DNA of 64,000 nt from Escherichia coli (GTDB taxonomy: Bacteria > Pseudomonadota > Gammaproteobacteria > Enterobacterales > Enterobacteriaceae): the NCBI RefSeq assembly GCF_003018255.1, contig NZ_CP027440.1; one strand, 5' to 3'. A program made the translations under genes and the position numbers. Below are positions 25,529 to 58,855 of the stretch, in pieces. The notes beneath the pieces were generated by a model that was not told the origin of the DNA, did no database searches, and saw nothing but the letters and a program-made list of their open reading frames with translations. Numbering within the stretch: position 1 is the first letter of the stretch; each line of letters opens with the position of its first letter.

Positions 25529-25693
25529 GCCTTATCTCCACCTCTTCGCGTCATTACGCGATATTCATTAAAGTGGCGAAAGCATGACAGCAATCACAAA
25601 AAAATGAAAATAACAAAAAGAGAAAACACTTTTGCCATTTTGCTAACAAACAGGAAGGAGATGCGAGGGAGAACGCGCTCCCTCGAGAGGAAA

Positions 25694-25783
25694 TCAGTGC
25701 AGCGCGGCAGTCAAACCCACGGCCACGATCAAACCGAGGACGATAATCGTTGTTACCAGTGAAAATTTAAGGTCGGTGCTCAT
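25694..25783 (-). CDS. ynhF: 29 aa hydrophobic small membrane protein
   Basis: Manual translation of the minus strand: ATG...TGA encoding MSTDLKFSLVTTIIVLGLIVAVGLTAALH; below the ORF-track size cutoff; matches the small protein YnhF I recall between ydhP and purR. Confidence 0.7.
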   Translation of the reverse strand: MSTDLKFSLVTTIIVLGLIVAVGLTAALH

Positions 25784-26021
25784 CAAGTTTTCTCCTTTTT
25801 TATTACCACACAAAAAGTGATATTACGCATTTTTACACACTGTGATGAAAAAATCTCCCGTCATTTATAATGATAAGTGTTTTTACCACTTCCCCTTTTC
25901 GTCAAGATCGGCCAAAATTCCACGCTTACACTATTTGCGTACTGGCCATTGACCCCTTCCTGACGCTCCGTGTCGTTTTTCCGGCGTACCGCAACACTTT
26001 TGTTGTGCGTAAGGTGTGTAA

Positions 26022-26037
26022 AGGCAAACGTTTAGCT
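26022..26037 (+). promoter_or_regulatory. PurR operator (pur box) O1 in the purR leader
   Basis: AGGCAAACGTTTAGCT matches the pur-box core GCAAACGTTT; purR is autoregulated by two downstream operators. Confidence 0.7.
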
Positions 26038-26081
26038 TGCGATTTTGCAGGAGCTGAAGTTAGGGTCTGGAGTGAAATGGA

Positions 26082-34618: not shown

Positions 34619-34647
34619 TTGCCACCTTCCCACTCTGCCGCTAATAT
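34619..34647 (+). promoter_or_regulatory. candidate sigma70 promoter of the valV-valW tRNA operon
   Basis: TTGCCA -35, 17 bp spacer, TAATAT -10, followed by GC-rich discriminator TCGTCCCCG about 20 bp before the tRNA 5' end. Confidence 0.55.
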
Positions 34648-34673
34648 TCGTCCCCGTTGTCACCTACAACGTT

Positions 34674-34750
34674 GCGTTCATAGCTCAGTTGGTTAGAGCA
34701 CCACCTTGACATGGTGGGGGTCGTTGGTTCGAGTCCAATTGAACGCACCA
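34674..34750 (+). tRNA. valV: tRNA-Val (anticodon GAC)
   Basis: 77 nt: GCGTTCATAGCTCAGTTGGTTAGAGCACCACCTTGACATGGTGGGGGTCGTTGGTTCGAGTCCAATTGAACGCACCA; canonical D-loop, T-loop GTTCGAGTC and encoded CCA. Confidence 0.95.
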
Positions 34751-34754
34751 TCCT

Positions 34755-34831
34755 GCGTCCGTAGCTCAGTTGGTTAGAGCACCACCTTGACATGGTGGGG
34801 GTCGGTGGTTCGAGTCCACTCGGACGCACCA
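34755..34831 (+). tRNA. valW: tRNA-Val (anticodon GAC), tandem copy
   Basis: 77 nt copy 4 bp downstream of valV; differs in acceptor stem (TCCG...CGGA vs TTCA...TGAA) and T-stem with compensatory changes; encoded CCA. Confidence 0.95.
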
Positions 34832-34938
34832 GATTTTCTTAATCTGGTCTTCTCCTTTTTCCCTCTGTTTCTTCTCTATATCCAATACGTTAAAAGATTT
34901 ACACTGTCTTCGTATGCGTTATCAGAAGGAGAATCGCT

Positions 34939-35244
34939 ATGGCAACTTTGTTACAACTTCATTTTTCTTTCAATGGCCCATTTGGCGACGCAATGGCTGA
35001 GCAGCTTAAACCGCTTGCTGAGTCGATTAATCAGGAACCTGGTTTTCTGTGGAAGGTATGGACAGAAAGTGAAAAGAACCACGAAGCCGGTGGGATCTAC
35101 CTTTTTACTAATGAAAAAAGCGCCCTTGCCTATCTGGAAAAACATACTGCCCGACTGAAAAATCTCGGCGTTGAGGAAGTTGTCGCCAAAGTTTTCGATG
35201 TCAATGAGCCACTTAGTCAAATCAATCAGGCAAAACTCGCCTGA
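34939..35244 (+). CDS. ydhR: small monooxygenase-like protein
   Basis: 101 aa ORF with RBS AGAAGGAG; recognised as YdhR. Confidence 0.85.
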
Positions 35245-52688: not shown

Positions 52689-52950
52689 TCAACCCAGCAA
52701 ACGCAGGGACTTTAGCGTAAAACATGCTTTTTACCTGCTTTTAATAAGCATAGACCCTGATGTGTGGGTTAACAGGCACGCTAAGAATTAGGTATCTCAT
52801 TGTTAGATAATGATTATTATCTAAGGAGCATTAAGGCTGTGATGAAAAAGAAAAAGTTGTATTGAAAATGACTATTTAAGGGATAGGTAAAAAAGTGCAG
52901 CGTTCAGAAATAAGAAAACCCTTAAGTCTGTGCGACACAGGCTTAAGGGT

Positions 52951-53018
52951 TTCTACCCCATCCGGCGCTTATCTCCGGCACTCACAGTGGCTTAGCTCTT
53001 GAAGGGGCGATAAGAATA
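52951..53018 (-). ncRNA. rydB: small RNA RydB (approximate ends)
   Basis: Placement from my recollection of rydB lying between sufA and ydiH on this strand; a perfect 11 bp hairpin AAACCCTTAAG/CTTAAGGGTTT at 52913-52950 plus U-rich tract lies just 3' and may be its terminator, so the 3' end may extend to about 52908. Confidence 0.45.
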
Positions 53019-58612: not shown

Positions 58613-58718
58613 ACGGTTATAAATCAACATATTGATTTATAAGCATGGAAATCCCCTGAGTGAAACAACGAATTGCTGTGTGTAGTCTTTGCCCATCTCC
58701 CACGATGGGCTTTTTTTT
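58613..58718 (+). ncRNA. rprA: small regulatory RNA RprA (RpoS translational activator)
   Basis: ACGGTTATAAATCAACATATTGATTTATAAGCATGGAAATCCCCTGAGTGAAACAACGAATTGCTGTGTGTAGTCTTTGCCCATCTCCCACGATGGGCTTTTTTT recognised as RprA, with terminal hairpin CCCATC...GATGGG plus T-run. Confidence 0.88.
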
Positions 58719-58855
58719 AACATTTTTCCGCTTTGCTATCTCGCCCCTCACGCTTTCCAATAATGTTGCACAAGATACTGTGACTCTCTTCAAGCCGTCA
58801 GCAGGCTGATAATGTTATTTATATTTTATTGTTTATTTCATGCAGCCATTACACG

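Follow-up and report, generated by a model that had tools for sequence, protein, structure and literature searches.

The valV-valW tRNA operon of Escherichia coli: a tandem isodecoder pair whose base-paired differences are probably old and nearly neutral

Introduction

Few tRNA operons of E. coli are as well characterised as the valV-valW operon, and the two tRNA forms encoded there have long been named tRNAVal2A and tRNAVal2B. Its promoter was described as sigma-70 dependent, with hexamer matches of 5/6 and 4/6, and the start sites were located by primer extension at two C residues, 18 and 19 nt 5' of mature valV (Mohanty and Kushner 2007, PMC2190699). The UCCU spacer between the two tRNAs carries no RNase E site, and transcription termination is apparently Rho-dependent (PMC2190699). 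RNase P alone separates valV from valW by cutting at both mature 5' ends, so that the precursor builds up in rnpA49 but not in rne-1 mutants, while the 3' sequences are taken off exonucleolytically (PMC2190699; Agrawal et al. 2014, PMC4176162). In predicted equilibrium structures, Mohanty and Kushner noted, the RNase P sites lie buried, and they proposed co-transcriptional cleavage. On the genomic scale, Goodenbour and Pan (2006, PMC1693877) counted 6 of the 86 tRNA genes in E. coli K-12 as isodecoder genes.

The pair analysed here, in a 64-kb window of E. coli DNA (the whole stretch under study), is this well-characterised operon, and the feature is therefore already known. The analysis concerns the base-paired differences between the two genes, their conservation, and the relation between gene spacing and acceptor-stem identity in arrays of the same kind.

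Structure of the gene pair and its differences

Exactly two tRNA genes were found by ARAGORN in the window, both of them tRNA-Val(GAC) on the + strand with the anticodon gac at position 35 (Table 1). With the Rfam tRNA family (RF00005) they reached 70.1 and 69.6 bits, above the gathering score of 29, and the segmentation gives each a 7-bp acceptor stem, a D arm, a 5-bp anticodon stem with a 7-nt loop and a 5-bp T stem with a GTTCRANYC loop. The score, the ARAGORN call and the segmentation all place valV and valW in the cloverleaf family. Between the two genes there are six differences (92.2% identity), and these form three pairs at which Watson-Crick pairing is preserved: 5:68 is U-A in valV and C-G in valW, 7:66 is A-U in valV and G-C in valW, and 50:64 is U-A in valV and G-C in valW. 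Over linear positions 8-50 (43 nt), which take in the D and anticodon arms and the variable loop, valV and valW do not differ, and the T-stem pairs 49:65 (G-U) and 51:63 (U-A) are common to them as well. The pair is a clean textbook case of compensatory change in an RNA helix.

Table 1. Features of the valV-valW locus, in positions of the 64-kb window
Feature	Positions	Strand	Description	Basis
Sigma-70 promoter of the valV-valW operon	34619-34647	+	-35 TTGCCA, 34619-34624; 17-bp spacer; -10 TAATAT, 34642-34647	Promoter scan; published hexamers; K-12 flank identical
5' leader of the dicistronic precursor	34654-34673	+		Published primer extension and placement on the window
valV, tRNA-Val(GAC)	34674-34750	+	77 nt, CCA encoded; acceptor stem GCGUUCA/UGAACGC; T stem GUUGG/CCAAU	ARAGORN, Rfam, K-12 identity
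Intergenic spacer	34751-34754	+	TCCT (RNA: UCCU)	Sequence; PMC2190699
valW, tRNA-Val(GAC)	34755-34831	+	77 nt, CCA encoded; acceptor stem GCGUCCG/CGGACGC; T stem GGUGG/CCACU	ARAGORN, Rfam, K-12 identity
3' trailer	34828-34900	+		Terminator scan, sequence, PMC2190699

A preliminary description of this DNA had reported a tandem tRNA-Val pair of 77 nt each, 4 bp apart, and the coordinates and the TCCT spacer confirm it. The names valV and valW given there were right, the sequences being those of the K-12 genes between ydhQ and ydhR, and the acceptor strands quoted, GCGTTCA/TGAACGC against GCGTCCG/CGGACGC, were exact. The anticodon arm that was called the same in both lies within the identical positions; the paired substitutions said to preserve acceptor-stem pairing are those at 5:68 and 7:66, which stay Watson-Crick; and the further difference noticed in the T stem is that at 50:64.

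Operon anatomy

Both 77-mers, the spacer and 133 nt upstream are identical to those of E. coli K-12 AB1157, and the locus order ydhQ, valV valW, ydhR-ydhS is the same as in the K-12 annotation. The promoter scan returned TTGCCA-17-TAATAT, in agreement with the published 5/6 and 4/6 hexamers (PMC2190699), and a G+C-rich discriminator, TCGTCCCC, was found after the -10 hexamer. Placed on the window, the published start sites would fall at about 34654/34655. The TCCT spacer is short and not A/U-rich.

Downstream of valW, the terminator scan gave one site against 0.7 expected by chance. The hairpin in the trailer (34828-34848) is weak, with 8 bp of which 3 are G-C, and uses valW's own ACCA end; its tail, CTTCTCCTTT, has no U run and is followed by a C/T-rich, G-poor tract. 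An intrinsic terminator after valW was rejected, since the sole candidate lacks a U run and occurs near the chance rate, and the unconvincing candidate fits the published Rho-dependent termination (PMC2190699).

A short dicistronic transcript is thus made from one sigma-70 promoter with its G+C-rich discriminator, RNase P cuts at each mature 5' end and thereby separates the tRNAs across a UCCU spacer that lacks an RNase E site, the short 3' extensions are trimmed by 3'-to-5' exonucleases, and termination downstream is apparently Rho-dependent. Both mature tRNAs are charged by ValRS and read the codons GUC and GUU.

Other RNA family matches in the window

A match to RF02194, 'HPnc0260 bacterial antisense RNA', was recorded at 34793-34955 on the minus strand with 112.4 bits against a gathering score of 59. 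In antisense orientation it covers the 3' half of valW, the region between valW and ydhR, and the start of ydhR. Part of the score comes from the complement of the tRNA T arm; the non-tRNA part, 34832-34955, alone scores 44.6 bits (E = 2.5e-4). No E. coli literature on the HPnc0260 match was found. A YrlA (Y RNA-like) match at 34698-34804 (+), across the tRNA junction, is sub-threshold at 28.1 bits (gathering score 69) and almost certainly reflects no more than a likeness to tRNA. Three enterobacterial sRNAs were matched at the Rfam gathering level, STnc550 at 25691-26081 (-) with 388 bits, rydB at 52948-53008 (-) with 83 bits and RprA at 58613-58720 (+) with 118.5 bits, and these matches are ordinary for this region of E. 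coli.

Conservation within E. coli

A 701-nt query around the pair had matches in 5425 of the 5426 complete E. coli genomes, with most of its length covered in 5410. By single-gene queries, valV was found exact in 5407/5425 and valW in 5348/5425 complete genomes, and an intact valV is missing from only about 3 of the 5425.

Deviations from the standard arrangement were observed in a few genomes. E. coli Q65 (GCF_047551885.1, NZ_CP180222.1) carries a single chimeric tRNA-Val at the locus (402-478 of its extracted locus), in which the 5' part of valV is joined to the 3' part of valW, so that the acceptor stem has a U5.G68 wobble and an A7.C66 mismatch. The chimera evidently reflects a deletion, with the crossover inside the 43 nt that the two genes share, and may be either real or a collapse in the assembly. 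In E. coli CEC96047 (NZ_AP026104.1), an IS3-family transposase gene (247-1586 of the extracted locus) lies directly 5' of a lone intact valW, and valV and the operon promoter region are gone. The valW of E. coli Z1323HEC0355 (299-375 of the extracted locus), one example among 77 genomes with a non-exact valW, has C2 changed to T, giving a U2.G71 wobble.

Val(GAC) arrays across species

One genome per species was scanned for two Val(GAC) anticodon arms 60-90 nt apart, and 120 loci were returned. Exact valV followed by exact valW, with zero differences, was found in 29 two-copy loci with spacers ranging from 3 to 17 nt. The genera concerned include Citrobacter, Enterobacter, Lelliottia, Kosakonia, Cedecea, Shimwellia and Siccibacter, and further Mangrovibacter, Phytobacter, Pseudescherichia, Superficieibacter and Silvania. 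The pair thus recurs unchanged in many genera of Enterobacteriaceae, the family across which the preliminary description had proposed an alignment as a check. The possibility raised there, that the differences are strain-specific noise, was rejected on the near-universal exact copies within E. coli and on this recurrence.

The exact valW form also extends beyond Enterobacteriaceae across families of Enterobacterales, being present in Serratia, Pantoea, Erwinia, Tatumella, Budvicia and Rosenbergiella. The partner of valW varies by lineage, with 5' acceptor strands GCGTTCT, GCGCTCT, GCGTTTA, GCGTTCG and others and T stems GATGG or GGAGG, and is fully paired in every case; Aeromonas has one valV-like and one valW-like form. 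At least two sequence forms are present in 101 of 111 arrays. Three different Val(GAC) forms stand consecutively in Kluyvera and Pluralibacter, with spacers of 2-8 nt, and many array spacers end in AGT or CAGT right before the tRNA 5' end.

An alignment of 62 distinct Val(GAC) sequences, all taken from other species, has 99.8% of its cloverleaf cells paired, compared with 85.6% after shuffling. In the same alignment double changes occur at 14 of 21 pairs, and slid-register controls pair at only 29-48%. The preservation of base pairs among Val(GAC) sequences is not chance.

Expression and functional equivalence of the two tRNAs

The two products are separable RNA species. According to PMC7568582, in its account of the work of Dong et al., Val2A and Val2B were resolved as separate species on 2D gels (2D-PAGE), and Miyauchi et al. 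purified tRNAVal2A and tRNAVal2B each with a specific 3'-side probe (PMC1851638). The probe sequences of that study identify Val2A as the valW product and Val2B as the valV product. The suspicion that one copy is not expressed, which the preliminary description had named as a ground for refutation, is thereby removed. With this and the strain-noise objection both set aside, valV and valW are a real, maintained isodecoder pair, having the same anticodon and six differences, with the expression of both taken from the literature.

The preliminary description suggested that the copies may differ in processing or identity elements. Specialisation of the two isodecoders after maturation, in charging, EF-Tu binding, modification, stability or non-translational roles, would be a reading of this kind, and the exact conservation of each form across many genera, like the separability of the two RNAs, would agree with it. 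ValRS recognises A35, C36, A73, G20 and G45 and is sensitive to G3-C70 and U4-A69 (PMC9976931). A35, C36, A73, G45, G3-C70 and U4-A69 are present and identical in valV and valW, and both have the regular acceptor helix of the ValRS identity set. The minor determinant G20, defined on tRNAVal1, is absent from both copies, whose D loop, AGTTGGTTA, has U after G18 G19 (as we infer the numbering of position 20); its absence does not distinguish the copies, and as a minor determinant it is not defining for Val(GAC) tRNAs. Differing ValRS identity elements were therefore rejected, every listed determinant being common to both. EF-Tu affinity is set by the T-stem pairs 49:65, 50:64 and 51:63, and the mean ddG at 50-64 is 0.0 for U-A and for G-C alike (PMC3239215, Table 2). 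Tuning of EF-Tu binding through the T-stem change was likewise rejected, since this additive model gives 0.0 for both pairs and 49:65 and 51:63 are shared. None of the differences thus falls on a known ValRS determinant, and in the published T-stem model for EF-Tu they are neutral, so that the suggestion of differing identity elements finds no support.

Nor does the suggestion of differing processing, as RNase P cuts both 5' ends of one dicistronic transcript. The modification acp3U47 is present in both valine isodecoders (PMC6895100), the charging level is given for the pair jointly (PMC4176162), and no difference lies in the anticodon arm, the D arm or the variable loop. Moreover, the partner of valW has quite different stems in Erwiniaceae and other families, which indicates that no particular valV sequence is required. 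Specialisation of the mature tRNAs appears highly improbable on this evidence.

Spacer length and acceptor-stem identity

The 175 adjacent pairs of Val(GAC) genes that were sampled, from about 50 genera and from Val(GAC) arrays only, show a relation between spacing and stem identity (Table 2). None of the 175 pairs has neighbours less than 10 nt apart that share an acceptor stem, and identical neighbours have spacers of 10-35 nt. Counted by genus, same-stem neighbours occur in 0 genera at less than 10 nt and in 12 at 10 nt or more, and different-stem neighbours in 20 and 30 genera respectively, for which Fisher p = 0.006 with a crude phylogenetic correction. In three-copy arrays with two forms, the order ABA was found 16 times against 5 for AAB/ABB. 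An exhaustive scan of 241 million metagenome records found no valW-valW pair with a 0-9 nt spacer, while the control scan at 10-40 nt gave 34 matches on 29 contigs, whose spacers were 17-35 nt long and comprised 25 different sequences.

Table 2. Adjacent Val(GAC) gene pairs with the same acceptor stem, by spacer length
Spacer (nt)	Same acceptor stem/pairs
0-5	0/42
6-10	1/25
11-15	2/35
16-20	16/29
21-30	8/25
Above 30	0/19

Based on this pattern, it can be proposed that tRNA genes packed within about 10 nt need different acceptor stems and that the heterogeneity of valV and valW was selected and did not arise by drift, a proposal that we consider unlikely. Selected heterogeneity would either keep the precursor from folding with swapped strands or protect the array from collapse by recombination; the pattern itself could reflect avoidance of misfolding, avoidance of collapse, or history.

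In the folding version, identical copies 4 nt apart would place the 3' acceptor strand of the first tRNA next to a perfectly complementary 5' strand of the second, and a swapped hairpin with ACCA and the spacer as its loop would produce a dimer that hides the RNase P sites, whereas with unlike stems each 5' strand would pair only with its own partner. Folding predictions with ViennaRNA go in this direction. For the natural leader-valV-UCCU-valW-trailer, both native acceptor stems have P = 0.71, against about 1e-5 in artificial valV-UCCU-valV and valW-UCCU-valW, in which the strand-swapped dimer dominates. The same contrast was obtained, on pair probabilities, between 165 natural dimers and homogenised controls, where the swapped middle hairpin reaches about 0.97 after homogenisation. 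The near absence of same stems at 0-5 and 6-10 nt compared with 16-20 nt, the genus-level table, the metagenome scans, the ABA order and the burial of RNase P sites in the structures of Mohanty and Kushner all agree with such an effect. However, the swapped fold is also predicted, with a probability of about 0.99, for natural identical arrays with 17-30 nt spacers, and these persist in many genera; the equilibrium model therefore seems a poor guide to function and is not taken as decisive. Several natural valV-valW dimers have only moderate native-stem probability, the problem may not arise if folding and cleavage are co-transcriptional, the correction for phylogenetic non-independence is crude, and the 0/19 above 30 nt is not predicted by a simple distance rule. 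Selection for correct folding of the closely packed precursor is accordingly judged quite unlikely as the cause of the acceptor-stem difference.

In the recombination version, the difference would be kept at the DNA level. Identical direct repeats in close proximity would collapse to one functional copy and be easily lost, while a crossover between valV and valW would leave a lone mismatched chimera and no intact Val(GAC) gene, so that the product would be purged and the two-copy state stabilised. The Q65 chimera, with its U5.G68 and A7.C66, is exactly the predicted product, although it may be an assembly collapse; the rarity of genomes without intact valV also fits, as does the lack of identical genes next to each other at very short distances. 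Against it, the 43-nt identical core still permits recombination, so that the divergence does not block the event, and the repeat period of 81 nt with a 4-nt spacer, compared with about 97 nt with a 20-nt spacer, should hardly alter deletion rates, yet identical pairs occur only at the longer spacing. Identical triple arrays, furthermore, persist in Serratia. A recombination lock seems very unlikely to be the reason for the difference.

Origin and persistence of the differences

The valV-valW operon consists of two tandem isodecoder genes whose differences are most likely old, functionally near-neutral divergence. A tandem duplication would have been followed by compensatory divergence at 5:68, 7:66 and 50:64, after which each copy would have been held constant by purifying selection on tRNA structure and dosage. 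We infer both the neutrality of the differences and the reason for their persistence: they would persist because of their location at the gene ends, which lack the flanking homology that gene conversion needs, and any crossover in the 43-nt core would yield a single chimera with a mismatched acceptor stem. The Q65 chimera suggests that core crossovers happen and give a defective stem.

Against neutrality, many genera have kept both of the differing forms exactly and in tandem, which could also reflect selection for being different. Near-neutral divergence explains the stem pattern below 10 nt only through confounding by duplicate age; alternatively to selection, young duplicates would be identical with unit-length spacers, while old ones would have diverged as their spacers shrank. 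The pattern of spacing against stem identity may be new. A limited literature search found no published rule on tandem tRNA spacing and misfolding among the 15 best of 58 hits. If the pattern reflects selection, it would amount to a simple rule for the design of tRNA arrays, natural and synthetic, and would give some bacterial isodecoders a functional reason.

Comparison with known systems

Compared with the K-12 valV-valW operon (tRNAVal2B/tRNAVal2A, 'valine isotype 2'), the tRNAs, spacer, promoter region and leader are identical in sequence, the flanking genes ydhQ and ydhR are the same, and one substitution lies in the downstream intergenic region. The isodecoder concept (PMC1693877) comprises a shared anticodon, a differing body and pairing-preserving changes, as in valV and valW; to be immediate neighbours 4 nt apart in one transcript is a trait of this pair and not general to isodecoders. 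In valU-valX-valY-lysV, the lysT operon, leuQPV and secG-leuU, the tRNAs are separated by RNase P and not by RNase E, as in valV-valW, and very short C/U spacers (CUUC, CC, CUC) likewise occur among the RNase P-dependent tRNA operons of E. coli. The 2-4 nt spacers named for the other operons (PMC4176162) lie between a valine and a lysine tRNA, unlike the same-anticodon pair valV-valW at 4 nt. The leuQ-leuP-leuV genes encode the same tRNA species and are 29-34 nt apart, whereas valV and valW are 4 nt apart and differ in their acceptor stems. In tandem-repeat proteins, misfolding between adjacent identical domains is avoided, since neighbours that are too alike can swap strands. The reading of the stem differences as a safeguard would follow the same logic, which for tRNA arrays is an analogy drawn from protein.
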